From positions 284,458-348,457 of the forward strand of contig OZ253475.1 in NCBI GenBank assembly GCA_965261845.1: a stretch of DNA of 64,000 nucleotides, read 5' to 3'. The notes below the pieces were generated by a model, which worked only from the letters and a program-made list of their open reading frames with translations, ran no database searches and was not told where the DNA came from. Both the position numbers and the translations under genes were made by a program. This stretch comes from Candidatus Foliamicus sp. (GTDB taxonomy: Bacteria; Pseudomonadota; Gammaproteobacteria; Steroidobacterales; Foliamicaceae). Of this stretch, positions 14,982-52,244 are shown one piece after another. Position 1 is the first letter of the stretch. Every line of letters begins with the position of its first letter.

Positions 14982-14990
14982 GAAGAAGTC

Positions 14991-29532: not shown

Positions 29533-29574
29533 AGGCGAAAGCCGCCGCCGATCGGCGCTGACCGCGCCCGTTCT

Positions 29575-32019: not shown

Positions 32020-32079
32020 TCACGCGGCCAGTTTCGCGATTAGGTATTCCTGCCCCCGATCCCCTTCGATCGAGCTGCA

Positions 32080-32307
32080 ATGCCCGCAGAGATGAAGCAC
32101 CTTACCCGAGGATTATCAAATGCAAAATTGGCAAAGGTCAGGCGGAAGAACCTAGACGGCAGTGAGTACGAAGCTGCTGTGAACACTGCACTAGTTCGAT
32201 ACGTTATTTCCCAAGATTCGGGCACGTATATCGCATTCGATGATGCACAAGATCCCATGGGGATTGATTCTCCAGAGGAACGGTCAATTGCGGCCTGTGG
32301 GGATTAG
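32080..32307 (+). CDS. Hypothetical protein (75 aa)
   Basis: ORF only. Protein-like composition, no clear RBS, no motif. Confidence 0.25.
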   Translation: MPAEMKHLTRGLSNAKLAKVRRKNLDGSEYEAAVNTALVRYVISQDSGTYIAFDDAQDPMGIDSPEERSIAACGD

Positions 32308-32672
32308 GCCCAAAGGGATATCGTAGCTACCGGTATTGGAGTTTCAAGCAGTGTTACAAAATATGGGAAAATTGACATGATGCGTGTTATTCGCGCTTTG
32401 ATGTACATCTTCTTCTGGCCATTCTATTCAGGGCCAAGTAAGAAGGAGTGAGCAATGAATGTGAGTGTCTTCCCTTATCCTTACCCACGAGTGATGTGAT
32501 TTCTGAAATTTACCGCATTTGGGTCTTTTCGGGCGGGCTTTGACCGAGCGGCCGAGTGTCACGTGTGCGGATTGTGAAAAAGCAGTGCGGTGCCAGTCAC
32601 CCGCGTTGGAACAAATGTGGGGACGAGAATTCGAGGTAGACACAAACCGTCGATAAAACAATAAGATGCAAT

Positions 32673-33209
32673 CTATTGCAACCCCGCCGCCTCCACCGCG
32701 TGGAACCCGTCGAACGGACCCCGGTAAGCCATCAGATACGGCTGCTCTTGCTCGTAAACTTCCCACACCGTCTTGTCCTTGATCGTGGGATGACGCCGCC
32801 GCTTCGCCTCACGGATGCACTGATCCTCAAGCCACGCGTTGATCTCCGCGTAACTGCGCCCGCGCGGGCGCGGCACGAACATACGCCCGCGCACGTGCCC
32901 CACCTGGCTCTCCACCTGGCCCTTCTCCCAACCCGCCCCGGGCGTGCAGGCCACAGGCTCAATCAGATGATGCGAACACATCTCCACGAATCGCCTTGCG
33001 AACCGTGTTCCTCGACAACTTCAACTCACGGGCAATCCGCCTGATCGGCACCCCGCGATCCAGATGATCCCGACGGATCCGCGCAATCGTCTCCACTATC
33101 AACATCTCCCGTCACCCCGTCCGTCCAAACAACGAGGCGAGTTGAATCGCTCAACTTAAGGGGGGTCAATATTGGACGCCGATTCCCCCGCTAGGGGGTC
33201 ACTATTGCA
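32673..33209 (-). pseudogene. IS21-family remnant: left terminal repeats + istA with a large internal deletion and 3' truncation
   Basis: Minus-strand ATG 33105 gives MLIVETIARIRRDHLDRGVPIRRIARELKLSRNTVRKAIRG (IstA HTH). This is joined out of frame to ACTPGAGWEKGQVESQVGHVRGRMFVPRPRGRSYAEINAWLEDQC (IstA C-terminal block, ORF 32673..32987). Two terminal direct repeats GGGGGTCA(A/C)TATTG(G/C)A at 33161 and 33194, with the tip TGCAATAGTGACCCCC ending at 33209. Confidence 0.75.
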
Positions 33210-36560: not shown

Positions 36561-38520
36561 CTAGGCTGAACTTCCAGAGTGTGCCGCATTGAACTCGTTG
36601 ATTTTCGGGACAAATCGAGAGATACGGTGTGTCGCTACTGGGAACGTTCGAGCCGCACGCCGAGCAGTTTGAAGGCTTCGCGCTGTAGCGCGGTGGGCCG
36701 GGTGAGGACCTCGAACGGCTCGGCGCCGGGCACTTGGGGGACGACGCGGTTCTTGGCGATCGTCGCCAGGTCGCCGAGCAGGGTGCGGAAGCTGTGCACC
36801 GGCAGACCGTTCGCGGTGCGTTTGCTGCGGGCTTTTTCCCTGGCCGCTTCGGAGACCTTCGCAGGCGCCACGACGGACGCGCGCGCCGCCTCGGCGGCGG
36901 CCGGATCGTCGTCGTCGAACAGCAGCGGCTTGAGCCGCTCGCGCAGGTGCCATTCCACGTAGTAGGCCAGCATGCACAGAAACACGTGCGCGCGCACCCG
37001 GTTCGCGGCGTGGTGGAAGACCGGTCGAACCTTCAGGTCCACGGTCTTGAGGCTTCGGAAGGCGCGCTCGACCGCGCTCAGGCGCTTGTAGGCGCGCACG
37101 GCGCCCTCGGCGTCGAGTTGCGTCTTCGCCAGGCTGGTGCGCACGACGTACAAGCCGTCCAGCACCGCCTCGGCGGCGATGGACTCAGGCTTTCGCCGAT
37201 AGCCGAACGCGTCGTCCTGGATATCCAGATCGAAGTGCTTGGCCATCTTGTATTGGCCGACGACCTTGCCCACCCGCACGCCGATCTTGTCCGCACCCTT
37301 CAGGCGCCACTTGTCGCGCCGCGTGGCCGCGACGATGGGATCGAGCAACGCCTCGGTGGCTTGGAGCAGTTCGTCTCGCTTGCGCGCCCGCGCCTCGGCC
37401 AGCAGCGGATTGCGGCACACCATGAGGCGCTCGCCCGGATAGGTATCGCTTCGGATCTCCACCAGGTCGGTCTCATCAAACAGCGAGAGCTGCACGGCGC
37501 CGGATTCCACCAGCGAGCGCACCGCCGGACCCCGCAACGCGCTAATCCAGTCCAGCCCCGCCGGCTTCACGTCCTCGCGAATGCGCGCCTCGGTCAACAT
37601 CCCGCGGTCGCCCACCAACACCACCCTGGAGAACCCGAAGCGGTGCCTGAGCTTGTCGACCTGCGCGCCCACGGTGGCCGGATCCGCGGTGTTGCCGGCG
37701 AACACCTCCACCGCCACCGGCCGGCCCTCGGCGTCGCACAACAGCCCGAACTCGATCTGCACCTTGCCGCGCCGCCCGTCGCGGGAATACCCGCGCTTGG
37801 CCAGCGGGCAGCGGCGCCCTTCCATGTGGACCGACGTCAGGTCGTAGAACACCAGGGCGCCGTCCTTGAGATGGCGCTTGGCCAAGCGCCGCTCGATGGC
37901 GTGCTGGCGCTCGATGAGCCAGTCCATGGCGGCGTAGAGGTCGTCCTCGTCGATCTCCCCAAGTGCCAGCGTCTCGGCGAGCGAGTCGCGCGCGGTCGCC
38001 TCGGCCAAGCCCCGGGCGGTGGCCAGTTTCGAGCCGGGGTCCAGGATTCGGGCGACGATCATCGCCAGCACGCGTCGGCGCTCGGGCGAGTCCGCACCGG
38101 CGATCGCGCGCTCCACTCGCAGCTTGCGCAACGTGCCGAGCACGGCGGCGACATGACCGTGGGGTTTGGAGCGCACGATGTCGAAGGCCTCCTCGCGCCC
38201 TACCAGGGGCTCGTTCCTCAGCACCCGCCGCAGGGCATCGATTTTCTGCGGGGGCCACTTGGTGAGGTTGGCCAAGGTGCGTTTCTTGACTTTGCCGTTT
38301 TCGCGCCAGCCCTCGCGCAAGAGAATAGCGGGAGGCGATTTGCGGTTGGGGACCTTTTCGATATACATGGGAACGATGATAGTTCATGAATCTCTACACT
38401 GCAATACTATCAGATCACTATACATGGGAATACATGCGCGGCACTCGAACACACTATTCCCCACCGAGTCAATCACTTAAATCAATCCGGACGGTTAAAT
38501 CGAGGGGAACTTCAGACTAG
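36561..38520 (-). mobile_element. IS1634-like (IS4 superfamily) insertion sequence, about 1.96 kb
   Basis: Imperfect terminal IRs CTAGGCTGAACTTCC (36561-36575) and GGAACTTCAGACTAG (38506-38520), 13/15 matching. Single 577-aa transposase gene. Confidence 0.75.
36635..38368 (-). CDS. IS1634-family DDE transposase
   Basis: MYIEKVPNRKSPPAILLREGWRENGKVKKRTLANLTKWP N-terminus, VVLVGDRGM block, and C-terminal AYKRLSAVERAFRSLKTVDLKVRPVFH (IS4-type Y..R..E..F..K motif). Confidence 0.85.
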   Translation of the reverse strand: MYIEKVPNRKSPPAILLREGWRENGKVKKRTLANLTKWPPQKIDALRRVLRNEPLVGREEAFDIVRSKPHGHVAAVLGTLRKLRVERAIAGADSPERRRVLAMIVARILDPGSKLATARGLAEATARDSLAETLALGEIDEDDLYAAMDWLIERQHAIERRLAKRHLKDGALVFYDLTSVHMEGRRCPLAKRGYSRDGRRGKVQIEFGLLCDAEGRPVAVEVFAGNTADPATVGAQVDKLRHRFGFSRVVLVGDRGMLTEARIREDVKPAGLDWISALRGPAVRSLVESGAVQLSLFDETDLVEIRSDTYPGERLMVCRNPLLAEARARKRDELLQATEALLDPIVAATRRDKWRLKGADKIGVRVGKVVGQYKMAKHFDLDIQDDAFGYRRKPESIAAEAVLDGLYVVRTSLAKTQLDAEGAVRAYKRLSAVERAFRSLKTVDLKVRPVFHHAANRVRAHVFLCMLAYYVEWHLRERLKPLLFDDDDPAAAEAARASVVAPAKVSEAAREKARSKRTANGLPVHSFRTLLGDLATIAKNRVVPQVPGAEPFEVLTRPTALQREAFKLLGVRLERSQ

Positions 38521-38716: not shown

Positions 38717-40798
38717 TCAAGAAAGTCGTCCGCTTAAGTCATCCAGGAATTCGGATGTGGGGTCAACACCAGTGACCAGCAGGTAGTCTCGCGCACGCGT
38801 GCAGGCCACGTAAAGCAAGTGGCGTTCAGTGTCGTAAACTTCCTGGAGATCCGCGTCGTCGGAGACGGATTCAATTCGTTCCTGGAGAGGTATCGTCTCA
38901 TCGTCGCAAGCCATGACTGCGACCGCTCTGAACTCCAGCCCTTTGACGAGATGCATCGTGCTTACGGACAACTGGCCGGCACTCTCCGCCAGCTGTTCGT
39001 CGAGCACTTTCCAGGGAAACCCAGACTGCTGAGCGGCGTCGGAGGCGCGGTCGACTTCCTTTTTTGAGCGCACAACAACGCAAGTCTCGTGGGGCGCGAC
39101 ACCGTCAGCTATTCGTTGTGCAATCCACGCACCGACTGCTTGGATCTCTTGCTCAATGCTCTCGAAAACGCGGATATCCGGTTTTGGACCATTGAACATC
39201 GACACCGTCCCACGGCGGCTTTCCACATTGCCGTCGACATCGGAGGTTTCCGGTTCCAACAGAAGATCGGCCTGCATCCTGATCTGGTGTGAAGTCCGAT
39301 AGTTGATCCGAAGCGTCTGCGAACGGCCTCGGACATCGACTCCGAGCGACTTCCAGGAGAATGGTGTCTGAAAAATGCGTTGCCCCAGGTCTCCCGCGAA
39401 GAAAAGAGCATTCGGCTGTTCGCTGCCTAGCGCTGCAAGGAACCGGAGTTGCGCGACACTGACATCCTGTGCTTCATCTACTATGGCGAAGTCGAATGGC
39501 GGGTTGCGGCGGGCCTGCATTTTCTCAGCAAGCACACTGAACATTTCTGATCGGGTTATCAATCCCCGCTCACGCAAGTGTCGCTTAACCTGCTCGAAGG
39601 ATTCCCACAACACCGCTCGGCGTTGTTCCGGAATTCCGGTCTTCCGACCCAACCGCTTGACGTTCCGATAGTCCTCCCATGACTGCAATTGCCAAGCGTC
39701 AACGACATGCTCCCATTCCCCAAGAAGAAATCGGGGGCTGAAACTCAACCCGTCACTTGCTTGAATTGCTTCGCTTAGCAATTCCTCAATGTGTTTTCTG
39801 GCGGCGATTTTTGGTCGCGCAACATGCGCTTCGTACAGACGCTGTCCAATCGTGTTTATCGCGTGAACCTCAAGGCGTTCAGCAAGGCGCGGTTCGTTGC
39901 CGATAAGCCGTCGCAACTTCTTTCTTAGCGCATTGGACAGCATGTCGGAAAACGTGGTCAGAAGCACTCGCGCATCCGGATTCTTCCGTGCCAAGTGGAC
40001 CGCGCGATGCAACGCAACTATCGTTTTCCCTGTGCCTGCTGAACCGGAGACCCGAGCCGAGCCTCCAAAGTCTTTCTCGACGACCGCGCGTTGTGCAGGA
40101 TGCAGAAAAACGGCCCACTTCTCCCAAGGGTAGTCCAAGGCTCGCGCCAACTCTTCGGAATCCGCCATAACGCGAAAGCGTCGCTGCGCGTCTGGATGCT
40201 CGAACGGGTCGGCGCCATCCACTGCTGCCGTTGGGATTCGTGGTTGTCCCCCAGTTGCCAGCTCCAGTAGCGCTTCAGCCGCCTCACTTGGAAGGTTTTC
40301 GGCCAGCACAAGCAACTCGTCTTCATCGGCCCTGCGCACGTCCTCCAGCCACTCGACTGGCACGCCAAAGCCGAGAAGTTCCTCCTCCGCCATATCCATG
40401 AACAGAGCGGGCTTAGCCGGCGTTGGGGCATCCCTGACCACGAATGCAGGGACCATGATCTCCTGAACGGTCTCACGTAATTCGACAAGCTGCGCAGCTC
40501 CGGTCTTGGGATGGGTCTTGAGTTTTCGCCGCTCCGCCCACTGATACGCTTTGTCGTGATGATCGACGTAACACAGCAACAGGCTGTTGACGCTGCGGTG
40601 AACGATGAGTCTGATGTCACGACTCACCCGTATCGACCAGAAGTTGGGATCTCGGACTCCGTCAAGCCTGTGAAATCGCATGCCCGGAGCGGCTGGATTT
40701 AGCTGCAGGTCAAATGCCTTTGTCTTTACGACCTTCTGCTCCCCGCCCGTCAATTTGGCGAGGCTGTTGGTAAACGTGTCGGCGATGCGGAAATGCAT
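38717..40798 (-). CDS. SF1 (UvrD/PcrA-like) helicase with a RelE/ParE-like N-terminal domain
   Basis: Helicase motifs GSAGTGKT (I), FAIVDEAQDVS (II), INYRTSHQI, TMHLVKGLEFRAVAV and LLYVACTRARD (VI). N-terminal ~110 aa: MHFRIADTFTNSLAKLTGGEQ...FWSIRVSRDIRLIVHRSVNSLLLCYVDHHDKAYQWAERR. ATG 40796-40798 shares one nt with the upstream TGA; TTG 40801 is the alternative start. Confidence 0.85.
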   Translation of the reverse strand: MHFRIADTFTNSLAKLTGGEQKVVKTKAFDLQLNPAAPGMRFHRLDGVRDPNFWSIRVSRDIRLIVHRSVNSLLLCYVDHHDKAYQWAERRKLKTHPKTGAAQLVELRETVQEIMVPAFVVRDAPTPAKPALFMDMAEEELLGFGVPVEWLEDVRRADEDELLVLAENLPSEAAEALLELATGGQPRIPTAAVDGADPFEHPDAQRRFRVMADSEELARALDYPWEKWAVFLHPAQRAVVEKDFGGSARVSGSAGTGKTIVALHRAVHLARKNPDARVLLTTFSDMLSNALRKKLRRLIGNEPRLAERLEVHAINTIGQRLYEAHVARPKIAARKHIEELLSEAIQASDGLSFSPRFLLGEWEHVVDAWQLQSWEDYRNVKRLGRKTGIPEQRRAVLWESFEQVKRHLRERGLITRSEMFSVLAEKMQARRNPPFDFAIVDEAQDVSVAQLRFLAALGSEQPNALFFAGDLGQRIFQTPFSWKSLGVDVRGRSQTLRINYRTSHQIRMQADLLLEPETSDVDGNVESRRGTVSMFNGPKPDIRVFESIEQEIQAVGAWIAQRIADGVAPHETCVVVRSKKEVDRASDAAQQSGFPWKVLDEQLAESAGQLSVSTMHLVKGLEFRAVAVMACDDETIPLQERIESVSDDADLQEVYDTERHLLYVACTRARDYLLVTGVDPTSEFLDDLSGRLS

Positions 40799-43317
40799 CA
40801 AGTCTGGATCGGGAGCAACCCTACGATCTTGCTGGCCACCGCCGAATAGAGGTCAACCTCCACTTCAGGTGCGCGGATTGATACCAAGAGAGCGTATCGT
40901 GCCACGCTATCGTATCGCTTCAGCTTTGTCCTCGACTTCCACCAGCCAAGCGCGGGCCAAATTCCGATGGCTCCCCGGCTTGCAAGTTCCGCTGCACTGC
41001 CCCGCCAGATATCGCTGTGTAAGGATCCCCTATGCCGATTCTGCGTTCCTATGACCCATCCGGCATCGTTTCCACTACTCCGCGTCCATTCTTCCGCGTC
41101 GCGCGCCGCTGCATTCAAACGTCCACGGAAGTCCGCCTCCGACTCCAATGGCCGCTTCACATCGAATCTCAAACCGTGCGATTCGTAACGATACCGGCGA
41201 GCAAATCCACGCGCGGACGGATTGGGTTCCACGAAATACGAAAGAGTCACCCGCATTTCTACCCGCGTCTCTCCGAGCGCTTCCAACTCATCAAGAGGCC
41301 AGGGCAATCGGTGCAGATTCATTTCCCGGAAAGTAGGTTGATTGCTCCCTTCACGTCTAAATGGATGCAACCGGTCCTCGCTTACCATGGTCAGAGAGTT
41401 ATCCACGCTCCACATGGCGCGGTCCAGATCGGGAATTCCGAATCCACAGCATCGCACGAGACGGGCCATATCCGATTTGTTAGGCGTTCGGTTTTCCGGC
41501 AGAAATGCCTCACGCATAGCATCGGTCCACTCTGCCGAGTGCACGATCAAGGCCCTAATGGTTTCGGGCCAGAGACGGGGATAGGCCACCATCAACTGCG
41601 CGGCCATCCGCGCGGCGAGTGCCGATGCCGCGCTGGTTGCGTTCGTGATTGTGAATAGCCTTTTCGTTGGCTCCCTATTCGTCGTCAGTAGGCTAAGGCT
41701 CGCCTTGGTTTCGGCATACGGGGTCGCATACAGATTTGTCTCGGCGGCATTGCCTCCTTCGAGGACGACATCCGGCTTTAGCGGCCAGTGCTTCTGCCAG
41801 GTTGCCGAGGTGGTGCTGAACGGGCTTAGGCCGCCAGCAGGTGCGACCGGCTGATAATTCTGTGCATCGGGCTCCGTAATCCGCACGAGTTGAGTCGCCG
41901 CGCCGACAGTCAGCGCGTTCCAGCTTTGACCCGGGTCATGAACCCCGTCGGAGCAATTGCTCTCCGGGTACTGCGTCCACGCATTTGGGTCCTGTACGTT
42001 TCCAGCAGAAATGACAAAGAGCCTCGGCGTATCCCCTTGTGTGTCTGAGTCGGCCGAGAGCCGGTCTATTGCCGCGGACCAGGCCGATGGCCGGCCACGA
42101 TCACGATTGTCGCGTGCAGTAACCGCCATGCTGAACACGCGGCGCCGTTGCGGTGCGGTAATTTCAGGCCGCGCGACTGCCTCGACAGTTAGGTAGCCAT
42201 GATGCTGTGCGTCTCCAGTGTTGGGGCTGCCATGAGTCAATAATTTCACTGATTCGAGTCGATGACGTATTTCGATCGGGTCTTGGGATTCGATTGCCTC
42301 TGTTAGGTTTCCGATCAGAGCAAGTCCAGCCATTTCCGTCCCGTGGCCGTCACTGTCATCGGTACCCCATCCTGGCTGCACTGAGTGCATGTCCGCACCG
42401 GCCAGTCCGGGGGTGATAAGCGGATGCCCTCGGTTGACACCGGTATCGAACAAGCACACGTGCGCCGCTTCCTCCTCCTCGCCGTGCACCGTCATCCGGC
42501 CCTGCAAGTCCTCAAGCCATTCTGCTTGTTCTTCGGGCGGTAACGCATCAAAGAACTCCGCCGTTTCTTTGGCGCGCCTCAACTCGGCAATACTGTTCAA
42601 TGTCAACATTGATTGCTTCATCTGACCTGCCGACCCATATGCCAGGAGGACGGTGCGTTCCGGGAACTGGAAATCCCCAGGTGCGAACGCTAAGTCCAGT
42701 CCATCAGCGAGTGCCCGGAACTGATTCGTGACGGCTGCACGATCACCCCGCACCGGTAGCCAGATTTCCCACCAAAAGGGTTCGTCGTCTGTTGTGGGGA
42801 ACTCCTCGGGCTCGTCCGTCCACAGAGCCTTCAGCGTAGCTGCCCGAATTTTGGAGATCGAGTTAAGTAGTTTGTGATTCTTGGGACCGAGTTTCGTGTC
42901 CTTTGATTCGTCCAAGTACGATCGGATGAGGTTCTCAAGAATATGCAACTTGCCGTCGGGAACGAACACTGTGGCGAGCGTCCGCGGCCCGTCGTGACGA
43001 ACATTCAGCAACTCGATTCCGGAGTGCTCCCGGGCGAGAGATTCGAAGGCCAGTTCGATTTCAGGAAAGCTTTCAAATTCAACACGTAGGCCGAAGCCCG
43101 CTTCAAGCCCGGCTGATTCTTGCTGCATCCGCGCAGTTGCCAATTGTGGACGCAATGTCTCGACCTGGCTCAGCAGCGCACTGCCATGCGGAATCCGATC
43201 CCTGTCTTGCAGCGAAACGCCGCCGCCAATTGCCCGCGGAGGACGGAGGAAGCGTTCCGTCTCGCCATTTCTCTCAAGAACAAAGTGCGGCTTGCGCCGA
43301 ACGTCCTGATCCGCCAT
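40798..43317 (-). CDS. ietS: S8-family (subtilisin-like) serine peptidase, IetS-like, 839 aa
   Basis: Catalytic-triad contexts CLFDTGVNRGHP (Asp), SDGHGTEMAGLA (His) and TNATSAASALAARMAA (Ser). About 280-aa non-catalytic N-terminal region. Lies directly after an AAA+ ATPase gene. Confidence 0.8.
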   Translation of the reverse strand: MADQDVRRKPHFVLERNGETERFLRPPRAIGGGVSLQDRDRIPHGSALLSQVETLRPQLATARMQQESAGLEAGFGLRVEFESFPEIELAFESLAREHSGIELLNVRHDGPRTLATVFVPDGKLHILENLIRSYLDESKDTKLGPKNHKLLNSISKIRAATLKALWTDEPEEFPTTDDEPFWWEIWLPVRGDRAAVTNQFRALADGLDLAFAPGDFQFPERTVLLAYGSAGQMKQSMLTLNSIAELRRAKETAEFFDALPPEEQAEWLEDLQGRMTVHGEEEEAAHVCLFDTGVNRGHPLITPGLAGADMHSVQPGWGTDDSDGHGTEMAGLALIGNLTEAIESQDPIEIRHRLESVKLLTHGSPNTGDAQHHGYLTVEAVARPEITAPQRRRVFSMAVTARDNRDRGRPSAWSAAIDRLSADSDTQGDTPRLFVISAGNVQDPNAWTQYPESNCSDGVHDPGQSWNALTVGAATQLVRITEPDAQNYQPVAPAGGLSPFSTTSATWQKHWPLKPDVVLEGGNAAETNLYATPYAETKASLSLLTTNREPTKRLFTITNATSAASALAARMAAQLMVAYPRLWPETIRALIVHSAEWTDAMREAFLPENRTPNKSDMARLVRCCGFGIPDLDRAMWSVDNSLTMVSEDRLHPFRREGSNQPTFREMNLHRLPWPLDELEALGETRVEMRVTLSYFVEPNPSARGFARRYRYESHGLRFDVKRPLESEADFRGRLNAAARDAEEWTRSSGNDAGWVIGTQNRHRGSLHSDIWRGSAAELASRGAIGIWPALGWWKSRTKLKRYDSVARYALLVSIRAPEVEVDLYSAVASKIVGLLPIQT

Positions 43318-43338
43318 GTAACGCCTGCAGTTCCTTTG

Positions 43339-44343
43339 CTACTCGTTTTTTGTCCTGAGTCGGCTGGAAATGTCTAGTCTTTCCCGTAGCGTATGGCGAA
43401 TTTCGTCCTCCGAAACCTTGTTCCGCCCTTCTATGAGTGCCTCTTTCAGAGCTTCATCCGACGCTCTGGCCACTTCGGCATAACTCAACCCCGCCCCCCC
43501 CTTGGCCAGCCGCTGCCAGGACACGCCTTTCGCGGCCATCCGTGCCAAGCGGGACTTCAATACCGATGCAATCCGTTCCTCATTTGGCAACTCGTAATGA
43601 AGCACATCGTCGAATCGGCGGAACAACGCATGGTCCAGGATATCCGGGTGATTGGTAGCCGCGACAATCAGGCTGTGGGATCCGTCCTGTTCAATCATTT
43701 GCAAGAAGCTGTTCAGGATACGCCGGACCTCCCCGACGTCGTTAGCAAGCCCGCGGTGTGAACCGATCGCATCAAACTCGTCGAAGAAATAGACTCCACG
43801 CGTTTTTTCGGTCGCTTCGAATACCTGCCGCAATTTGGCCGCGGTCTCGCCCATGTACTTCGTAATCAACCCGTCAAGCCGCACCTGTAGCAGCGGCATG
43901 CCAAGCTCGCCGGCGAGTACGGATGCCGTCATCGTCTTGCCGGTGCCCGGCGGCCCCATCAGCAGCAGCTTTCGCCTCGGAGAGAGTCCATGCGCCAATA
44001 TCTCTGACGCCCTTCGCTGTTCCCGGATAATCCGCTTGAGTTGGCCCAACAAGACGTCGTCCAGAACCATATCCGCAAGCCGTGCCTTTGCGTACGCGAC
44101 GTTAAGCAGCCCCGCCAACTCTCCTCGTGGGCGGCTGATGGGAATCGGCTTCTCGCCGCGTTTTGATAGTAGTCCCCGGCGCACCTTTGCTTGGTCGATC
44201 AGCGCCCTCAACTCCACCGCGAGCTTGCCATGACCCAGTTTCGCCTCGTGCGCGGCGACCTGCATAGCCACGGAGAAAAACCGCTCGTCGTTATCTTCAA
44301 GGTGGGACTTGAGCAACGCTTTCAATTGAGCGGCACTAGCCAT
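43339..44343 (-). CDS. ietA: AAA+ ATPase (CDC48/FtsH-type module), IetA-like, 334 aa
   Basis: Walker A LLLMGPPGTGKT, Walker B VYFFDEFDAIG, sensor/Arg-finger region ATNHPDILDHALFRRFD. Confidence 0.85.
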   Translation of the reverse strand: MASAAQLKALLKSHLEDNDERFFSVAMQVAAHEAKLGHGKLAVELRALIDQAKVRRGLLSKRGEKPIPISRPRGELAGLLNVAYAKARLADMVLDDVLLGQLKRIIREQRRASEILAHGLSPRRKLLLMGPPGTGKTMTASVLAGELGMPLLQVRLDGLITKYMGETAAKLRQVFEATEKTRGVYFFDEFDAIGSHRGLANDVGEVRRILNSFLQMIEQDGSHSLIVAATNHPDILDHALFRRFDDVLHYELPNEERIASVLKSRLARMAAKGVSWQRLAKGGAGLSYAEVARASDEALKEALIEGRNKVSEDEIRHTLRERLDISSRLRTKNE

Positions 44344-44546
44344 CTCTCTCCCCTGCGACTGTGTCGCATCATACCCTGAACACCTTGAAAACCTCGTCGC
44401 ACACCCCGCTCCGCAGTCGCACCATAGCCCAGCAGATCGGTCTCAACAATATCCGCAAGCTGCGGCGGGTTGGGCGGCAAGTGATTCAGGATGCGCTTCC
44501 AGTTTGCCTCGTTCGGCCCAAGAGTATCGGCAATGCGGAAATCCAT
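44322..44546 (-). CDS. 74-codon ORF whose first 8 codons duplicate the start of the helicase gene; doubtful as a gene, possibly a recombination scar
   Basis: ATGGATTTCCGCATTGCCGATAC (MDFRIADT) vs ATGCATTTCCGCATCGCCGACAC (MHFRIADT) at 40798, with no similarity afterwards. The 3' end overlaps the ietA start by 22 nt. Confidence 0.25.
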   Translation of the reverse strand: MDFRIADTLGPNEANWKRILNHLPPNPPQLADIVETDLLGYGATAERGVRRGFQGVQGMMRHSRRGERWLVPLN

Positions 44547-44574
44547 AGAGGTCGGGCCTATTAGGCTTTCTATA

Positions 44575-45267
44575 TCAGGCTTGCGTGCATTCCAGGCGTT
44601 TGAGCCAGCCTCGAAAGTTGAGACATTCAGAACGGATTCTGTCGAACCCGATTTCCAGCGCCGCCACATTGCCCATCAACGGCTTCTGGTAGTCGGGAAC
44701 GAGTTCCAAGATACGACGGGATGGCGCTGTGGCGGGAGAATCGTCTATTTCCTCTGGAGTGGCGAATTGATCTCGAATCTCCTGGAACCGCGGCGCAAGT
44801 TGAGGACGACCGATTGCTTCCCCGAATCGTTCACAATCGCTGAAGAGCATGGCCTCAAACTCATGCATCATGACGTAGGGTATGAAGCGCCTGTCGTCGA
44901 AGCCGGCACCCATCGTCCGCCGGATATCCGCCGCGAGCTCGTCCTCAATCGTCTTCGCCTTACGCGGAAAGGCCAGCCCGGCTGCCTGAGACCGGCCCGG
45001 CCAGGCTCTTGAACCCGCCTTCGGCATCCCGTAATAGTCAACCATTGTGGTTGCAATGCATTCCTGATCTTCCCGCAAGTGAGCCACGATGTCATTTCGA
45101 GCGGCGCTCCATGGCTTGATTCCGCCACGGCGGGAGCGTTGACGGGCGTTACCGATCAAGCGCGCGCCAACACGGGTCATACCAAACCTGTAAAGATGTG
45201 GGGCGAGCGCCTCATTGACGAAAGTCTCCTCGGTTTGGCCCTCAACGTGAACGAGGAGCCGGGTCAT
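44575..45267 (-). CDS. DUF4276-family protein (Toprim-like N-terminus)
   Basis: MTRLLVHVEGQTEETFVNE start and 230 aa, the pattern I recall for DUF4276. 4-nt overlap (ATGA) with the upstream ATPase gene. Confidence 0.8.
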   Translation of the reverse strand: MTRLLVHVEGQTEETFVNEALAPHLYRFGMTRVGARLIGNARQRSRRGGIKPWSAARNDIVAHLREDQECIATTMVDYYGMPKAGSRAWPGRSQAAGLAFPRKAKTIEDELAADIRRTMGAGFDDRRFIPYVMMHEFEAMLFSDCERFGEAIGRPQLAPRFQEIRDQFATPEEIDDSPATAPSRRILELVPDYQKPLMGNVAALEIGFDRIRSECLNFRGWLKRLECTQA

Positions 45268-46364
45268 CGCGCGGAATCTGGGCCTTTGTTCTCCTCCGCC
45301 GGACGGCCGCCAAACTCATTCTTCTCCCAGAGCTGGCCGAGACTGTAATCTTCCAGCCACGCCGAGAGTTTCTCGCCGTCCAGCCTGCGAAGCGTTGTAG
45401 CGCCCTTTACGCGATCAGCCACAAGTACGTCTTCCGGTTCGAAGTGATCCAGTAACAAGGATGACTGTGTCGCTAGGATGATTTGCGAGGTGTGGGATGC
45501 TTGTTTGAGCAGCGACGCCAACAGAGTGATGGCGTACGGATGCAGGCCAAGCTCGGGTTCGTCTAAAAGTATGACGGAGGGCCGATGCGATTCAGGTTGG
45601 AGCAAGAGGGTAGCGAGAGAGATAAACCGGAGAGAACCATCCGATAGTGACGAGGCATTGAAATAGGCGTTCGACCCCCGATGACGCCATTCGAAGAGAA
45701 TCTTTTCCTCGTTCAACTCCAGCGGCTGAAGGACAAAGTCGTCGAAGAATGGCGCGGCCAGCCGCACGGTTTGTCGAATTTGAGTGTACGCGTTCCGGTG
45801 CTTTTTGCTTAGCAGAAACAGGAAGGCGGCGAGATTCGAACCGTCTGCGCGCAACTGACGATTGTCTTGCAGGTCAGCCGTCTTTTTCATCGGGGATGCC
45901 GCGCCAGCGTCGTGAAAATGGAAAGACCGCCAGCAACTCACTTCGCTTTGCACGAACTCAACTTCAGGTCCAAGTCCAAGGCTTTCTTCCAAGTCACTGA
46001 CAAAATCCTGGGGGATATTGATTTGAAATATCTCAAACCCGGCATTCAACTGGTCGTCAACTCCGTATGGCATTCCGACCCTGAAGTCAGCTGATCCATC
46101 CTTAAAGCTGACCACGAACCCAATCTTTGGCGTTACCTTTGATCCAAAGTGAAGCAAGCGGTCCGCTCCGCCGGATCGGGCAACAAGATCGGACAGCTCG
46201 GACCCGCTAAGCACGGCTGAGCGCAACAGCTTGAGCGCGCCAAGGAAGTTTGATTTGCCCGATCCGTTGGCGCCGATCAGGACGTTGATGGCACGCAATT
46301 GCAACTGTTCGATTGCGGCGATGCTCCTGTAGCCCCAAATCGAAATTTCGCGTATCGCGGCCAT
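45264..46364 (-). CDS. ABC/SMC-type (AAA_21/23-like) ATPase, 366 aa
   Basis: Walker A LIGANGSGKSN, signature-like SSLSDGSLRF, Walker B VILLDEPELGLHP. No nuclease domain in the same chain. Confidence 0.85.
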   Translation of the reverse strand: MAAIREISIWGYRSIAAIEQLQLRAINVLIGANGSGKSNFLGALKLLRSAVLSGSELSDLVARSGGADRLLHFGSKVTPKIGFVVSFKDGSADFRVGMPYGVDDQLNAGFEIFQINIPQDFVSDLEESLGLGPEVEFVQSEVSCWRSFHFHDAGAASPMKKTADLQDNRQLRADGSNLAAFLFLLSKKHRNAYTQIRQTVRLAAPFFDDFVLQPLELNEEKILFEWRHRGSNAYFNASSLSDGSLRFISLATLLLQPESHRPSVILLDEPELGLHPYAITLLASLLKQASHTSQIILATQSSLLLDHFEPEDVLVADRVKGATTLRRLDGEKLSAWLEDYSLGQLWEKNEFGGRPAEENKGPDSAR

Positions 46365-46373
46365 GACCTTTTA

Positions 46374-49136
46374 CTAAACCCGAAATACCTTGATGACCTC
46401 GTCGCCCAGGTGGTTGATGACCTTGACGGCGATACGGCCTGTCTCGGGTTTCGGGAATGGGCGCGAGGTGTCACTATGGAGTGTAGCCCAAGCGTCCCGG
46501 TTGATTTCAGCCTTCAATGTGGTCTTCAGCGCCTTATAGGGATCGTTTGCGCCGAGGAAATAGGCATGGCGCACGAAGAAGCTCTCTTCGTTGTAGTCGG
46601 TGTCGATGAACCAGCAGGCGATCCCATCCGGTCCGTCGGAGCGGACTTCGCCGGTTTGCGGATGAAAGACATCCACGCCGTTGACCTTGACCTGGATCTG
46701 ATCGTCCTCCGCGTTCAGAATCTCAATATCGGGTTCACCGAAGATCACGAACAGGTTGCCCTTGCCGGTATTCTTCAGCTCGGCGGCCATATGCAGATCG
46801 GCGTTCATACGCGCCTTGAGAACGGGAATTCGTCCCAGCTTATCGAACTCCGAGGAGTGCGCGTCATAGCTGAAAGCACAAGCGATAAGCACATCGAAAT
46901 CCGCGTCTCCGGCTTCGCGAGCTGCCTTGACCAGATCCGGCCGAGAAACAGTGCCGAACTCTGGACCAATGAAAATAGCGCCACGCCTTTCGGGATCGCT
47001 GCCGCTTTCCAAATAGCGGCCCTCTGCGCAGATAAGATCGCCCGGCCAAGGCTTCACAGACGTAAAGGTAATCTTGTCTTCCTTGTGGGCTTGCTGAACA
47101 CCTGCGGAAGCAAGGTTCTCAAGAACGACCTCGGCGAAATCGGCTTGACCGGCATAATCCCCGCGCGCATCGGCAACGCCTCCGATCAACTCATCGTTCT
47201 CGTCAACACCCAGTTCACGGTGTGGCGAAAGGCTCTCTACGGTGAACGGCCCGGCGACTCGCACCTTTTTGCGGTCCCCGTACGGCTTGTCGTACAGATA
47301 TTCGTAGTTTGCCTTGGCGGCGATGGAAGCGTCGAATTCCTTTTGCCGGGCGATGCGCTGTTCCCACCAATTCGCGTGAATTCTTCTGCTCTCCTCGGGC
47401 CATGCTTCGTCGGCGTCGCGGGGGATTTCCCATTCCTCGTAGGATGTGCCGAGCGCAGCGTTCAATTCCTGACACAGCGGTTCCAGCGTTTCTTGGAACT
47501 TCTCCCAAATTACGTCGATCTCGGCGTTGTGGGCGATGGACTTGAGGGTGATGTGGGGGACGCGCTCGTACACGAAGCCTTGGCGGATGTCGTTGTACGT
47601 GGGCGTTTCAGAGGCGGCTTTGCGGGTGAGCGCGGCTTCCTTGATTTGGCCGTCGCGGCTGTCGGCGAGCAGATAGTAGGGATAGCGTGCGCCCATGATG
47701 CGAGCGCGGGCCAGCGCGAGTGCGACGCGGGAGGTGTCGATGGTGATCCAGCGGCGGCCCCACTGCTCGGCAACGTACGCGGTCGTGCCGGAGCCGCAGG
47801 TAGGGTCGAGGACGAGGTCACCAGGGTCGGTGGTCATTAGGATGCAGCGTTGGATGACGCTGATAGCAGTCTGGACAACGTAGACTTTTGAGTCACCGAA
47901 CCCAGATTGCCGTGTGTCATTCCATACGTCCGCGTGTGCTTGAAATCCGAAGTCAGAAAAAGGTCTGACAAAACCCAAAGTTAGCCCAGAGAAGGTCAAC
48001 CTCTGCGCTTTGCGGAGCCTTTCCATCCCTACGAGATTAGTTTTCCACCCCCCCTTCCCAGGTCGAAACTTCTTCCCATCAAGATCATACTCAAAGAGAG
48101 TCGTTGAGCTTGCAGACTGAGATGTGATCGGATTCATGCGAGCGATGCGGTAAGGTGTATCGCCCGCTGGTGCCAAGAAACCATCCTCGGCAAAGTCAAA
48201 CCGGAAATTGTTGTCCTGGTCTACCTCTCTCTCAAAAAGGGGACGACGAAATTTGAGGTCGTTCAACGATTTTGCGAACCATAGGACAAAATCACGAGTG
48301 CTATCCAACGCCGCCGATGCTTTACCTGTCGTAGTTCTGTAGACAATCTCACTGACAAAATTCTCTTCCCCAAACACCTCGTCCATCAACGCCCGCACAC
48401 GATGTACATTCTCGTCCCCGATTTGCACGAGAACTGAACCACTTTCGGTCAACAAATCCCTCGCTACGGTCAGCCTATCCCGCAAGTACGTCAAATACGA
48501 ATGAATCCCATCGCGCCAAGTATCTCGAAACGCCTTTACCTGCTCCGGCTCTCGCGTGATGTGATCGGCCTTGCCATCCTTGACGTTGCGGCTGCTCGTT
48601 GACCATTGGAAGTTGGAGTTGAACTTGATGCCGTAGGGCGGGTCGATGTAGATGCACTGCACCTTGTCTCGCAGCCCTTCCCGCTCCGCGAGCGATGCCA
48701 TCACCTGCAGGCTATCCCCGAGAATCATGCGGTTCGACCAGTTCGCATCGTGCTGATAAAACTCGGTCTTGGCGTTGTCATCAGGCAGCCCATTGAAATC
48801 TGCAAATAGATCAACCTGCGGTTCACTAGACTGCTGCTCCGCGTGACTGCGGCGAAGCAGGTCGTCGATCAGCGCCTTGGGATGGACTTTTTCCTGGATA
48901 TAGAGCGGTGGCGCGTGAGCTACAAGGTCTGACCAGTCCTGCTTATCCTTCCCGCGCCACACAAGCTGCGGATCGAGGTCCCGGTTACGGCGCTCGTAGG
49001 CGACGCGCACCGGGGATTGCTCCTCCTTGCGCAACACTGACTCGTATTCCGCCGTCGGGATATTCTTCCGCGTCGATTCCTGATGAGTCAGCACTTCGAT
49101 TGACTTGCGTTTCGGTTTGCTGGGTCTTCTTGCCAT
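46374..49136 (-). CDS. mod: DNA methyltransferase (beta-class N6A/N4C, Type III Mod-like) with long C-terminal extension, 920 aa
   Basis: Motif IV IYIDPPYG precedes motif I LDPTCGSGTTAYVA (beta-class order). About 300 extra C-terminal residues ending KVINHLGDEVIKVFRV. Confidence 0.85.
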   Translation of the reverse strand: MARRPSKPKRKSIEVLTHQESTRKNIPTAEYESVLRKEEQSPVRVAYERRNRDLDPQLVWRGKDKQDWSDLVAHAPPLYIQEKVHPKALIDDLLRRSHAEQQSSEPQVDLFADFNGLPDDNAKTEFYQHDANWSNRMILGDSLQVMASLAEREGLRDKVQCIYIDPPYGIKFNSNFQWSTSSRNVKDGKADHITREPEQVKAFRDTWRDGIHSYLTYLRDRLTVARDLLTESGSVLVQIGDENVHRVRALMDEVFGEENFVSEIVYRTTTGKASAALDSTRDFVLWFAKSLNDLKFRRPLFEREVDQDNNFRFDFAEDGFLAPAGDTPYRIARMNPITSQSASSTTLFEYDLDGKKFRPGKGGWKTNLVGMERLRKAQRLTFSGLTLGFVRPFSDFGFQAHADVWNDTRQSGFGDSKVYVVQTAISVIQRCILMTTDPGDLVLDPTCGSGTTAYVAEQWGRRWITIDTSRVALALARARIMGARYPYYLLADSRDGQIKEAALTRKAASETPTYNDIRQGFVYERVPHITLKSIAHNAEIDVIWEKFQETLEPLCQELNAALGTSYEEWEIPRDADEAWPEESRRIHANWWEQRIARQKEFDASIAAKANYEYLYDKPYGDRKKVRVAGPFTVESLSPHRELGVDENDELIGGVADARGDYAGQADFAEVVLENLASAGVQQAHKEDKITFTSVKPWPGDLICAEGRYLESGSDPERRGAIFIGPEFGTVSRPDLVKAAREAGDADFDVLIACAFSYDAHSSEFDKLGRIPVLKARMNADLHMAAELKNTGKGNLFVIFGEPDIEILNAEDDQIQVKVNGVDVFHPQTGEVRSDGPDGIACWFIDTDYNEESFFVRHAYFLGANDPYKALKTTLKAEINRDAWATLHSDTSRPFPKPETGRIAVKVINHLGDEVIKVFRV

Positions 49137-49157
49137 TGGTTGGTACCGTGCTTGCGG

Positions 49158-52100
49158 CTATGCCGTTACCGAATCGATCATTGCGTTGAAGTGTTCTTCC
49201 ACCTTCGCTTCGAAGTCGGATTGCATCGCCCACGCGTCCGTGAACTCTGCGAACGCCCAGCGCCCGTAACGCTCGTGGTTGTTCACGCCAGGAACCCAGT
49301 ATGTCTCCATGGTGTTTTTCTTGTCCTTGGCGTCCTCCCGCCGGTACCCCTTGATCTCGACAATCAGGTGCAAAGGATCATTATGGCCATGGCCGTCATC
49401 GACGAGGACGACGAAGTCCGGGATGTAGGTACGCGTCTCGGAGCCATACCGGTAGGGCGCCTCAAGCCCCAGATTGTGGTTCTTCACGTATGCGAGCACT
49501 CGGGGATGAGCTTCTGCGACTCGGCAGAATTCAGCTTCCCAGCCGCTGTCCAGAACTACCCAGTTGACGTGGCAACGCCGTGCGTCGGTTTCGTATCTGT
49601 TTGTTTTGGTGGTATTGAAATTTACGTGCGCTGTCGAACCCACTGGGTTGTACGGATCAAGCACCGCTTTCACCGGGCGGCTGCCGATCTCGGCGCGGGT
49701 GATGGCCGCCGTAATCCGTTCGCAGGCCATGTCCGCCAGTTCCTGGTACATGAGTTGCGCAGGGTAGGCGCCGCCCTTGCAGACGAGGCAGTTGTCCAGC
49801 CATTGCTTTGTGATGCGCTTGAGTTGGCCGAATAGATGCAGCTTGGGTTCCTCGCCCGGATCGCGCCATTTCGTGTAGAGCAGACGGTGGGTGACGTGAA
49901 ACAGAAGCGTCGAGCGCCGCATATCCTGAAGATGTTCCAGGCTGAGGTCCACATCTTCGCCAATTATCCCGGCATTCTTTGTGATGGAGGGGCCGATTAG
50001 GTCAGGCGTCAACTCAAGCACTGAATCATCGGTGAATTCGGCAGTGAGTCGTTCTTCCGGAAGCTCGACGCGATAACCGGCCACGCGCGGAAACCGGATT
50101 TCCAGCGCGTCCCGGTCCGGCCTCACCGCCCTGACGTGAATGGTCTCCCGGGGCGGCTGCGGCGGCGCCACAACCGGCTTCGCCGTGAAATCGAAGGGGA
50201 TCCCCAGCACATCCGCGTACTCGACGCTGAACAATCCCTCGTGCGGGCCGTCCTCGTTCAGATCGTAGGACTGCCGCCTGAGCGCGCGGCCCACGACCTG
50301 CTCGCAGAGTAATTGGGTGCCGAAGGCGCGGACGCCCAGAACATGGGTGACGGTATTCGCATCCCAACCCTCGGTCAGCATGGAAACGGACACGACGCAG
50401 CGGATTGAACCGCCCAATCGCCCTGGTTTTCCGACCGTGTTCATAACCTCGCGCAGCAAATCCTGATCGGTGATCTTTTCGGCTTGGCCCCGATCGCCGG
50501 TGCGCTCCACGATTTCGCGGCGGAATCGCTCGATCTCATCTGCCGCCATTTTCCGGAAATTCCTGTCCAACGCATCCCCTGACTCCAGTTGCTCACTATC
50601 GATCAGCAGCGTGCGCGGACGAGCCAGCTGGTTGCCGTGCTCGTCGAAATTGCGGAACAGCGGCAAGCGGCCATTCTCCAGGGTGGTCGTGCCGTCGTCG
50701 TTCTCGCGGTGAAAGCCCGAAATGAAGTCGTAAACGAGCTTGGATGTCGATGTGTTGTTGCACACGATGATGAAACATGGCGGCACGCTGATGTGTGCCT
50801 TTTCCCAGAGTTCAAAGGTCTGTTTGTAATGCCCGTACAGCGCCTCAAGGGCGGTTTGCAGTTCTACCGGCAGGCTGAGCGGATCGAGTGTCTTGGCCTT
50901 TCCGCGTCCTTTTTTCGGCATGCGGGTTCGAATGTGCTGCCACAGGTTGCGGAACCTGGGCATTTCCCCATCCGGGATGTTGTCCGCGACGGGGACACGC
51001 GGCAGTTTGACGATGCCGCACTCGATGGCGTCCATGAGAGAGAAATCGCTCATCGTCCAAGGGAACAGCGTGCCCTCGGCATAGCCGGAACCGCTAAGGA
51101 AAAATGGTGTGGCGGAAAGATCAATGACGCTGGAAAGCCCAAGTGTTCGATTCACCGCCTCAAGACCGGAAATCCAAAGCCGCGCTGCCTCCTTGTTTTT
51201 CTCGGCTTCTTTCTTGTCGTCACCTTTCAGAACGGCTTCCTGGTCTTCTCCCGGTTTCTCGCGGTAGCAATGATGCGCTTCATCGTTGATCGCCAGAATG
51301 TGCTTCATGCCCATCAGGCCAGGCATTACCCGTTGCAGCATCTGTCCCTCGGTTTCGACCGTATTGAGGGCTGCGCCCCGTCCCTGGAGCAGCGACCGGC
51401 CGCCCTTTGAGAGGACAATTCGGTCGCGGAGCTTGAAGGCGTGGTAGTTCGTGATGACGATCTTCGCGCGCTCAAGATCAGAGAGCATATCCGCCGGCGC
51501 CAGCTGCCGGCTCTGGTAGTAGCTGTCCGGATCATTAGGCTGTAGCACGCGCAGCCGGTCACGAATGGTCAGACCCGGTGCGACAACGAGAAATCCGCGC
51601 GTGAAACGCTTGCTTTGCGGGTGACGGACGGCATTCATCGTCTGCCAGGCAATCAGCATTGCCATTACAGTAGTCTTGCCCGCGCCCGTCGCGAGTTTGA
51701 GCGCCATGCGCATCAGTTGGGGATTGGCATTGCTGCTGGCGTTTGCCAGATGCTCCAGGAGCCCTTTTTCCGCCTTTCCTCCGCGCGGCGCTACCTCGGC
51801 GAGCCAGATGGCGGTTTCTACTGCTTCGATCTGGCAGAAGAAGGGACGAATCCCGCTGAATTTGTGGTGTCTCCAGTGCTGAAGAAGACGCGCCGTTTCA
51901 GGAGTCACGCGCCACTGATTGGGGTTCGGTAGCCGTCGCCAGCGGTCCACCTCCTGGCGAACGCCGTTGATGATGGCAGTGTGATCGTATTGCTGTGCCT
52001 CTGTCGAGAGCCCTTTGCCCTCATCGAACACCAGCGCAGCCTGCTTGGAGGATCCCTTTTGCTGCCTCGGTTTCGGTATCGGGGTGATGAACTCCGCGAG

Positions 52101-52217
52101 CCGGCGCGATTCAATGGTTCTTTGGGTGGGCTGACCGGTTGCATCCAGCTCCCAGTGGCGAGAGGGGTACTCGTATGGAGAATTCAGTATTGGCCCTTCA
52201 AAGAACCGATCCCCCAT
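49158..52217 (-). CDS. res: Type III restriction enzyme Res-like helicase-nuclease, about 1,019 aa
   Basis: Motif I LATGAGKTTVMAML, DEAH box AINDEAHHC, C-terminal PD-(D/E)XK-like IPDFVVL...LIVEIKG. ATG 52217 is preceded by AAGAGGAAG; GTG 52220 is the alternative start. Confidence 0.85.
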   Translation of the reverse strand: MGDRFFEGPILNSPYEYPSRHWELDATGQPTQRTIESRRLAEFITPIPKPRQQKGSSKQAALVFDEGKGLSTEAQQYDHTAIINGVRQEVDRWRRLPNPNQWRVTPETARLLQHWRHHKFSGIRPFFCQIEAVETAIWLAEVAPRGGKAEKGLLEHLANASSNANPQLMRMALKLATGAGKTTVMAMLIAWQTMNAVRHPQSKRFTRGFLVVAPGLTIRDRLRVLQPNDPDSYYQSRQLAPADMLSDLERAKIVITNYHAFKLRDRIVLSKGGRSLLQGRGAALNTVETEGQMLQRVMPGLMGMKHILAINDEAHHCYREKPGEDQEAVLKGDDKKEAEKNKEAARLWISGLEAVNRTLGLSSVIDLSATPFFLSGSGYAEGTLFPWTMSDFSLMDAIECGIVKLPRVPVADNIPDGEMPRFRNLWQHIRTRMPKKGRGKAKTLDPLSLPVELQTALEALYGHYKQTFELWEKAHISVPPCFIIVCNNTSTSKLVYDFISGFHRENDDGTTTLENGRLPLFRNFDEHGNQLARPRTLLIDSEQLESGDALDRNFRKMAADEIERFRREIVERTGDRGQAEKITDQDLLREVMNTVGKPGRLGGSIRCVVSVSMLTEGWDANTVTHVLGVRAFGTQLLCEQVVGRALRRQSYDLNEDGPHEGLFSVEYADVLGIPFDFTAKPVVAPPQPPRETIHVRAVRPDRDALEIRFPRVAGYRVELPEERLTAEFTDDSVLELTPDLIGPSITKNAGIIGEDVDLSLEHLQDMRRSTLLFHVTHRLLYTKWRDPGEEPKLHLFGQLKRITKQWLDNCLVCKGGAYPAQLMYQELADMACERITAAITRAEIGSRPVKAVLDPYNPVGSTAHVNFNTTKTNRYETDARRCHVNWVVLDSGWEAEFCRVAEAHPRVLAYVKNHNLGLEAPYRYGSETRTYIPDFVVLVDDGHGHNDPLHLIVEIKGYRREDAKDKKNTMETYWVPGVNNHERYGRWAFAEFTDAWAMQSDFEAKVEEHFNAMIDSVTA

Positions 52218-52244
52218 CACTCACTTCCTCTTAACCCGCTCTGA

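Follow-up and report, generated by a model that had tools for sequence, protein, structure and literature searches.

Examination of a 64,000-nucleotide (nt) stretch of contig OZ253475.1 from Candidatus Foliamicus sp., referred to below as the window, points to what is very probably a single co-oriented defence operon at positions 38717-52220. A restriction endonuclease (Res), a DNA methyltransferase (Mod) and a terminal superfamily 1 (SF1) helicase make up its framework, and two further defence cassettes, HEC-01 and IetAS, are nested between Mod and the helicase (Table 1). The operon occupies an island of about 38.5-52.2 kb with a G+C content of about 0.57, compared with about 0.65 around it. 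The initial annotation had dealt with the last three genes and had suggested that the helicase may extend an IetA-IetS pair into a three-component Iet system. Its description of these genes was accurate: the open reading frame (ORF) list and the translations confirmed three consecutive minus-strand genes with the sizes and motifs claimed, the 21-nt gap between ietA and ietS, and the TGATG overlap of ietS with the helicase gene. The Iet-family membership of the pair and the nature of the third gene, an SF1 helicase with a RelE/ParE-like N-terminus, were likewise borne out by profile and fold searches. The grouping of the three genes into one system did not survive comparison with related loci.

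Helicase loci in species-representative genomes were sought with six peptide patterns, and of the 218 obtained the 80 best by tblastn were kept; this set was searched with all island proteins, and the ORFs in the slots between framework genes were called mechanically. The helicase homologues of these loci show 63-77% identity, the best 120 helicase matches 70-83%, and both sets cover many phyla. Mod is encoded upstream of the helicase and on the same strand in 70 of the 80 loci and Res upstream of it in 53; nine of the ten loci without Mod have less than 3.5 kb of upstream DNA, and in general the partners are missing mostly where the contig is truncated. No gene beyond Res on the upstream side or beyond the helicase on the downstream side was conserved in the related loci, and with Mod and Res so regularly present the conserved unit is therefore Res-Mod-helicase. 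This triad ranges from Pseudomonadota to Planctomycetota, Acidobacteriota and Cyanobacteriota, and is also carried by plasmids. IetS was found in ten of the 80 loci, in eight of them together with IetA as a full pair and in the other two at loci truncated by contig ends, and HEC-01 in three or four.

Profile searches support the assignment of the framework genes. Res scored 1375 bits, against a cut-off of 800, with the NCBIfam model NF046055 'BPTD_3080 family restriction endonuclease', and its translation contains the motifs ATGAGKT, DEAH and IPDF...VEIKG. Pfam returned ResIII (3.6e-8) and RE_endonuc (2.8e-4, which is below its cut-off), and the only PADLOC match was REase_III, marginal at 7e-4. 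Mod matched PADLOC MTase_III (PDLC03632, 1391.5 bits) and Pfam N6_N4_Mtase (4.9e-31). The first nested cassette gave PADLOC matches with HEC-01A (2.6e-122; Pfam AAA_21 1.6e-30) and HEC-01B (1.1e-70; Pfam DUF4276 6.4e-49). From Res to the helicase, successive genes are separated by 21 nt, 9 nt, a 4-nt overlap, 231 nt, 21 nt and a 1-nt overlap. The 231-nt spacer at 44344-44574, between HEC-01B and ietA, is the sole sizeable non-coding gap of the operon; it may hold an internal promoter, although a consensus scan of the island for promoters and terminators found sites no more numerous than in shuffled sequences. A 74-amino acid (aa) ORF at 44322-44546 on the minus strand, called in source assemblies, overlaps the start of ietA, and other IetAS loci leave no room for it.

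The space between the framework genes is occupied by a changing cargo. From the stop of Mod to the start of the helicase the distance is 5-9 nt in eight loci and reaches up to 7.3 kb elsewhere, and this Mod-helicase slot contains 121 cargo ORFs, nearly all co-oriented with the framework, which fall into about 88 BLAST clusters. PADLOC and Pfam identified among them Dsr1/SIR2, IetAS, GmrSD, reverse transcriptases, HerA, RhuM, KAP NTPase, TatD, ABC-3C components, an SNF2 protein, a kinase, Z1, and HEC-01/AbiL/AriA-like ATP-binding cassette (ABC) ATPases with RloB or DUF4276 partners; many other slot cassettes have no match in either database. The slot of the window holds two cassettes, HEC-01 and IetAS. 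The interval between Res and Mod forms another slot, which is filled in 26 of 53 loci, in most cases by one gene (SoFic-like Fic, Bro-N, NYN, PIN, DUF4062, YhcG/DUF1016), and is empty in the window, where only 21 nt separate the two genes. Plasmids agree with this: a Pseudomonas amygdali plasmid bears a cargo-free triad in which the Mod stop overlaps the helicase start, and on a Rhizobium plasmid both slots are filled by unknown genes. Across the 80 loci the helicase homologues are thus linked for the most part to a type III-like Res-Mod pair. With about ten loci with IetAS against 70 with Mod, and with so many kinds of cargo, a third Iet component is not supported, and this is an outcome that the initial annotation itself had named as refuting its proposal.

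Three further observations concern the slots and their loci. The kinds of genes in the Res-Mod slot are often also seen inside type I restriction-modification (R-M) operons. In locus L086 (10531-11647), a fragment corresponding to helicase residues 1-33 lies right after IetS and is followed by a 335-aa ORF and then by the full helicase start; this arrangement looks like an insertion that duplicated the 5' end of the helicase gene and could be the footprint of cassette entry. Locus L028 (3871-6429), where only two pieces of Mod are left (residues 1-213 and 755-920) and IetAS and the helicase are intact, is a decaying host system that retains its cargo.

The overlap of ietS with the helicase gene had been taken as an argument that both proteins are made as a stoichiometric unit. 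At the junction cagacTTGATGcat, the IetS stop codon TGA (40800-40798) and the helicase ATG (40798-40796) have one base in common. In 20 of the 86 loci compared, the start codon of the helicase and the stop codon before it overlap by 1 or 4 nt, and in about half of the loci the gap before the helicase is at most 9 nt. Most IetAS-bearing loci keep the overlap, but it also occurs after non-Iet cargo (L025, L030, L033, L040, L053 and L068) and where Mod directly precedes the helicase (L061 and L072). The tight junction is a property of the helicase's position, whatever gene precedes it. A stop/start overlap alone does not assign a gene to the neighbouring system, and a tempting misreading is corrected here.

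Examination of the IetAS pair leads to the same separation from the helicase. IetA, with Walker A GPPGTGKT and Walker B YFFDEFD, matched PADLOC IetA (4.6e-73 over residues 3-322) and Pfam AAA (1.4e-30). IetS matched PADLOC IetS (7.9e-39) and Pfam Peptidase_S8 (1.6e-56), with PF27160 Y4kK_N also recorded; the S8 triad and the oxyanion Asn lie in FDTGVN, DGHGTEMAG, SAGN and NATSAAS, after an N-terminal region of about 280 aa. Both proteins are below the NCBIfam equivalog cut-offs (IteA 205.1 bits against 510, IteS 72.4 against 900), and the pair is a divergent branch of the Iet family. IetAS was known as a plasmid-stability toxin-antitoxin pair of pTiC58 and was reportedly presented by Gao et al. 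in 2020 as an antiphage system.

A scan of metagenome contigs with IetS yielded 23 loci. All seven with an IetS of 61-65% identity show the order Mod-IetA-IetS-helicase, one of them being cut before the helicase. In the 16 loci with an IetS of 40-59% identity, IetA is kept wherever upstream DNA exists, and helicase, Mod and Res are all absent; 12 of these loci have at least 1.5 kb of downstream DNA, and no other neighbour is conserved. Among three further IetS proteins (67-73% identity), two are in the slot and one elsewhere. In Lacimicrobium alkaliphilum (L115, 1-12031), a 66%-identical IetAS lies within a type I R-M operon without a window-type helicase, in the order hsdR-hsdS-945-aa ABC ATPase-ietA-ietS-hsdM, so that the same cassette type uses different R-M hosts. 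Loci with IetAS are dispersed over a neighbour-joining tree of the helicases, and their nearest relatives carry other cargo; the helicases of such pairs are 92% (L028/L032), 85% (L004/L001, the latter with Dsr1) and 85% (L014/L013) identical. The N-terminal 225 residues of the helicase were not more similar to one another in loci that bear IetAS (permutation p = 0.39). Because of its free-standing relatives, the copy in a type I operon, the scattered tree and the lack of N-terminal covariation, IetAS is an autonomous cassette, often but not only carried in the Mod-helicase slot.

The helicase itself is composed of a RelE-fold domain, a linker and a UvrD core. It contains the motifs GSAGTGKT, VDEAQD, GDLGQRIF, INYRTS, MHLVKGLEF and VACTRAR, with the Walker A lysine at K258 and the Walker B residues D441/E442, and matched Pfam UvrD-helicase (4.1e-19) and UvrD_C (1.3e-18). 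At its N-terminus, Pfam HigB-like_toxin matched 47 of 62 diverse family members (best 1.8e-7), and the window protein weakly (3.4e-4, below the gathering cut-off). A sequence-profile search of the N-terminus against the PDB gave nothing significant (RelE3 ranked first at E = 0.34), and the RelE assignment therefore needed a fold search. AlphaFold2 modelled residues 1-120 with a mean predicted local distance difference test score (pLDDT) of 89.7 and a predicted template-modelling score (pTM) of 0.79, and the best PDB matches of this model in Foldseek were YoeB (2a6r), RelE (3bpq/3g5o/2khe), YafQ and ParE (ParE2), with probability 1.0 and target-normalised TM scores of 0.65-0.73. Residues 1-95 are thus predicted to adopt the beta-alpha-alpha-beta-beta-beta RelE fold. 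Proteins of the RelE branch cleave mRNA in a ribosome-dependent manner, those of the ParE branch poison gyrase, and both have a cognate antitoxin; no small antitoxin-like gene is conserved beside the helicase in the related loci.

Residues H43, R57, R63, H67, H80, H81, D82 and Y85 of the RelE-like domain are nearly invariant among relatives, and nowhere is the helicase more conserved than in its N-terminal module, from which we conclude that the domain is under selection. These residues would be compatible with a putative active site, and the domain may act as an RNase or as a docking surface. The AlphaFold2 model of the full-length helicase was too poor for use (pLDDT 61, pTM 0.40). When the N-terminus was searched against a representative library of 1.84 billion proteins, the 150 matches listed included only the same family, mostly as fragments. 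A protein of 1951 aa (P0348) starts with the same N-terminal module.

A search of plasmids by tblastn revealed full-length relatives of the helicase in 86 records. On E. coli IncY-type plasmids, a 704-aa relative ends a four-gene operon that codes for a DEAD/DEAH helicase, a 1644-aa S-adenosylmethionine-dependent DNA methyltransferase, a 2113-aa DEAD/DEAH helicase and the 704-aa helicase, in agreement with ARMADA type II as described in PMC12458937. The 704-aa protein has Lys266 and Asp454 at the positions mutated in ArmD (PMC12458937), and these align with K258 and D441 of the window helicase. BLASTP of the window helicase against this ArmD gave 31% identity over residues 5-685 (E 5e-93), and the alignment takes in the RelE domain, the HDxAYxWA and HPxTGAxQ motifs and the linker. 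Relatives from Thermus and cyanobacteria also lie in ARMADA-like operons. As the alignment with the ARMADA II protein runs end to end, the window helicase is assigned to the ArmD family, as a predicted member serving a different methylase-based system.

The framework shares features with several known systems without coinciding with any of them. Type III R-M enzymes cleave DNA in an ATP-dependent manner at two inversely oriented unmethylated sites, and hemimethylation is sufficient for protection. The triad resembles them in having an N6_N4_Mtase Mod (PADLOC MTase_III) and a Res that combines a ResIII SF2 ATPase with a C-terminal PD-(D/E)xK motif; it differs in its res-mod gene order, in its third conserved gene, in the marginal REase_III match and in the lack of a PDB relative detectable by sequence. 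Res and Mod are both larger than their counterparts in the EcoP15I pair. The UvrD-type SF1 core of the helicase is also that of Gabija GajB, for which PADLOC gave partial matches (best 3.3e-24). Gabija was rejected, as these matches are partial only and no GajA is present; GajB is not known to carry a RelE-like N-terminal domain.

ARMADA type II consists of ArmA-ArmB-ArmC-ArmD (PMC12458937; bioRxiv 10.1101/2025.09.22.677730) and, in addition to an ArmD homologue that aligns from end to end, has in common with the triad that it is methyltransferase-based and co-directional. Membership was rejected: no ArmA (Snf2/BrxHII-like), PglX-like ArmB or YprA/DUF1998 ArmC is found among the island ORFs. 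In a plasmid system, deletion of ArmD or the K266A substitution abolishes ARMADA II defence, which is non-abortive (PMC12458937); in enterohaemorrhagic E. coli (EHEC), deletion of armD has a milder effect than deletion of the other arm genes (bioRxiv 10.1101/2025.09.22.677730).

The nesting itself has a precedent in embedded defence, or 'guilt by embedding', which Payne et al. described for the hosts Hma, BREX, DISARM and type I R-M (bioRxiv 10.1101/2024.01.29.577857). The same work, which does not mention IetAS, defined HEC-01 and detected no defence for it (bioRxiv 10.1101/2024.01.29.577857). Like these hosts, the triad has co-oriented cassettes between genes of a methylase-containing system and a diverse cargo that includes ABC ATPase pairs (HEC-01), GmrSD-like proteins and RNases. 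Unlike the four described hosts, it is built on a type III-like Mod with a BPTD_3080 Res and offers two slots, Res-Mod and Mod-helicase. The presence of HEC-01 prompted us to consider Hma, which comprises the helicase HmaA, the 5-methylcytosine (m5C) methyltransferase HmaB and the ATPase HmaC (PMC8565338). This host was rejected, because the Mod of the window is of the N6/N4 type and not an m5C enzyme like HmaB; furthermore, no Hma model of PADLOC matched Res, and none was among the best 25 of 45-46 matches for the helicase and Mod.

The nested pair shares with IetAS and ietHAS the order of an AAA+ ATPase followed by an S8 protease, and ietHAS, a variant published in 2026 with an SNF2 helicase upstream of ietA (PMC13069673), indicates that Iet can recruit a helicase. 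A helicase-extended Iet, which the initial annotation did not know to be described, has therefore since been reported, although with another helicase family and another gene order: the window helicase is SF1/UvrD, lies downstream and is common to many non-Iet cassettes, whereas IetH is SNF2 and lies upstream. PADLOC and Pfam profile searches found no SNF2 IetH-like gene in the island. What was already known thus comprises IetAS, HEC-01, the embedding principle, the RelE-UvrD helicase type (ArmD) and ietHAS. A literature search for 'BPTD_3080' found no paper, and no description was found, subscription journals being outside the search, of a type III-like BPTD_3080 R-M system with an ArmD-like helicase as a conserved triad or embedding host.

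The similarities above suggest a scheme in which Mod would mark the host DNA by methylation and Res would translocate on and cut unmodified incoming DNA, assisted by the helicase. By analogy with ARMADA II, the ArmD-like helicase may take an active part in restriction as a component of that module; the sites on which it loads are probably DNA ends or structures that Res has produced, and its RelE-like domain would contribute RNase activity or docking. IetAS is probably a separate, toxin-antitoxin-like second line of protease and ATPase, comparable to IetAS/ietHAS (PMC13069673), and, since it would lie on the same transcript as Res-Mod-helicase, this second line would be expressed together with the first. 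Cassette exchange probably proceeds by recombination within the strongly conserved genes on either side. The junctions are too tight to contain dedicated sites.

Several observations weigh against a fixed Res-Mod-helicase framework with IetAS as mere cargo. The locus percentages are estimates, the 80 loci being ranked by similarity and not an unbiased census. One helicase (L034) has 10 kb of upstream DNA without Res or Mod, and more distant BPTD_3080 Res-Mod pairs (at most 47% identity) have no helicase; Res-Mod can thus exist without it, and the triad is a subclade of the BPTD_3080 R-M family. No other single cassette fills the slot as often as IetAS (about 10 of 72 informative loci), every IetS sampled with 61% identity or more, bar one, is encoded directly upstream of the helicase, and a helicase-dependent Iet variant is known, its helicase being a different one (ietHAS, PMC13069673). 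A secondary functional tie between IetAS and the helicase is conceivable in the embedded subclade. One of these distant pairs is on plasmid pAQ5 of Picosynechococcus PCC 7002 (L112, 15717-17591), where a BPTD_3080 Res-Mod with an embedded UPF0175/DUF3368 pair is followed by an unrelated 624-aa protein with a cytidine-deaminase domain, and no helicase.

Such a tie would be part of a wider reading, which we consider unlikely: the triad would be an undescribed defence chassis of many phyla with two dedicated insertion slots, its terminal helicase may also serve the embedded cassettes, and the IetAS subclade would be wired to it. This helicase always stands last, is often coupled in translation to the gene before it, and is most conserved in its RelE-like domain. 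As an example of such a shared role, the helicase could detect DNA ends or stalled complexes and then permit restriction as well as the action of cargo such as IetS. It is improbable that the helicase is instead an autonomous defence or toxin module, a RelE RNase under a UvrD motor, that tends to settle at the 3' end of R-M operons without mechanistic tie to Res-Mod or to the cargo. The solo case of L034, the same architecture in a quite different system (ARMADA II), the strong conservation of the N-terminal module and the milder armD phenotype in EHEC (bioRxiv 10.1101/2025.09.22.677730) would fit such a module, but its order and orientation after Mod are fixed in 70 of 80 loci from many phyla with nothing conserved beyond, and its start frequently overlaps the Mod stop in cargo-free loci. 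Moreover, the loss of ARMADA II defence on ArmD deletion or K266A substitution (PMC12458937) argues for an ArmD-type helicase being an integrated subunit.

The three-component Iet system, with the helicase as a nucleic-acid sensor or effector made stoichiometrically with IetS by translational coupling, is now quite improbable. It would account for the TGATG overlap kept in most IetAS-bearing loci and for the adjacency of IetS (at least 61% identity) to the helicase in six of six informative metagenome loci and about ten genome loci, and it has a helicase-dependent precedent in ietHAS (PMC13069673). However, neither the position nor the sequence of the helicase changes where one of more than 40 other cassettes, or no cassette at all, stands in place of IetAS; the partners that stay constant are Res and Mod, and the overlaps are generic to the slot. 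Helicases that are 92% identical follow unrelated cargo, their N-terminus does not covary with IetAS, and the IetAS of 66% identity occupies a type I R-M slot without a window-type helicase, while its sisters of 40-59% are free-standing; the precedent itself has a different arrangement, IetH being an SNF2 helicase located upstream. Ordinary clustering of chance neighbours in a defence island, without organisation at the operon level, is suggested by the low G+C content, the insertion sequence (IS) element of the island and a CRISPR-Cas system elsewhere in the window, but is highly implausible for cassettes that lie inside the Res-Mod-helicase unit and not beside it, almost all of them in the same orientation and 0-25 nt apart or overlapping, and at the same internal position in dozens of unrelated genomes.

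A three-gene Iet system at this locus is thus not supported; the host triad and its catalogue of cargo merit closer attention. The triad is a very conserved host for embedded defences for which the papers searched gave no description. By the logic of guilt by embedding, the unmatched slot cassettes are ready candidates for new defence genes, and the presence of the RelE-UvrD helicase in two unrelated methylase-based systems, ARMADA II and the triad, makes its role a well-posed experimental question.

Table 1. Features of the defence operon and its edge, in window coordinates
Feature	Position	Strand	Description
Res	49158..52220	-	1020 aa, host operon gene 1; SF2 helicase-like ATPase with C-terminal PD-(D/E)xK motif
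Mod	46374..49136	-	920-aa N6/N4 DNA methyltransferase, host operon gene 2
HEC-01A	45264..46364	-	ABC-type ATPase (AAA_21/AAA_15), cassette 1 gene 1
HEC-01B	44575..45267	-	DUF4276 (TOPRIM-like) protein, cassette 1 gene 2
IetA	43339..44343	-	334-aa AAA+ ATPase, cassette 2 gene 1
IetS	40798..43317	-	839-aa S8 peptidase with N-terminal Y4kK_N region, cassette 2 gene 2
ArmD-like helicase	38717..40798	-	693 aa from ATG at 40798; terminal gene of host operon
Predicted RelE/YoeB-fold domain, helicase residues 1-95	40514..40798	-	From fold model and conservation
TGATG stop/start overlap IetS/helicase	40796..40800	-	Read from sequence
IS4-type DDE transposase	36635..38368	-	Pfam DDE_Tnp_1 6.3e-15; outside the system, marks the island edge

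The IS4-type transposase gene abuts that of the helicase. The block from Res to the helicase plus the IS element recurs on another contig (L110) with different flanks, which include two integrases and RadC; as the flanks differ, the block moves as a unit. Elsewhere in the window, a type I-C CRISPR-Cas operon on the plus strand (7572-15562) was identified by Pfam from cas3, cas5d, csd1/cas8c, cas7, cas4 and cas1. Its array is minimal, with two identical 32-nt repeats, GTCGCCCTCCGTGCGGGGGCGTGGATTGAAAC, at 15464-15495 and 15531-15562 and one 35-nt spacer. A 2299-aa ORF at 167-7066 on the plus strand contains fibronectin type III, cadherin, Calx-beta and leucine-rich repeat domains, and its product is likely a giant surface or adhesin protein. 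Finally, the patch of lowest G+C content (about 0.51), at 29500-33000, encodes a DUF4238 protein (30536-31402, minus strand) alongside fragments of IS-like ORFs; this patch may represent a further small insert, either mobile or related to defence.

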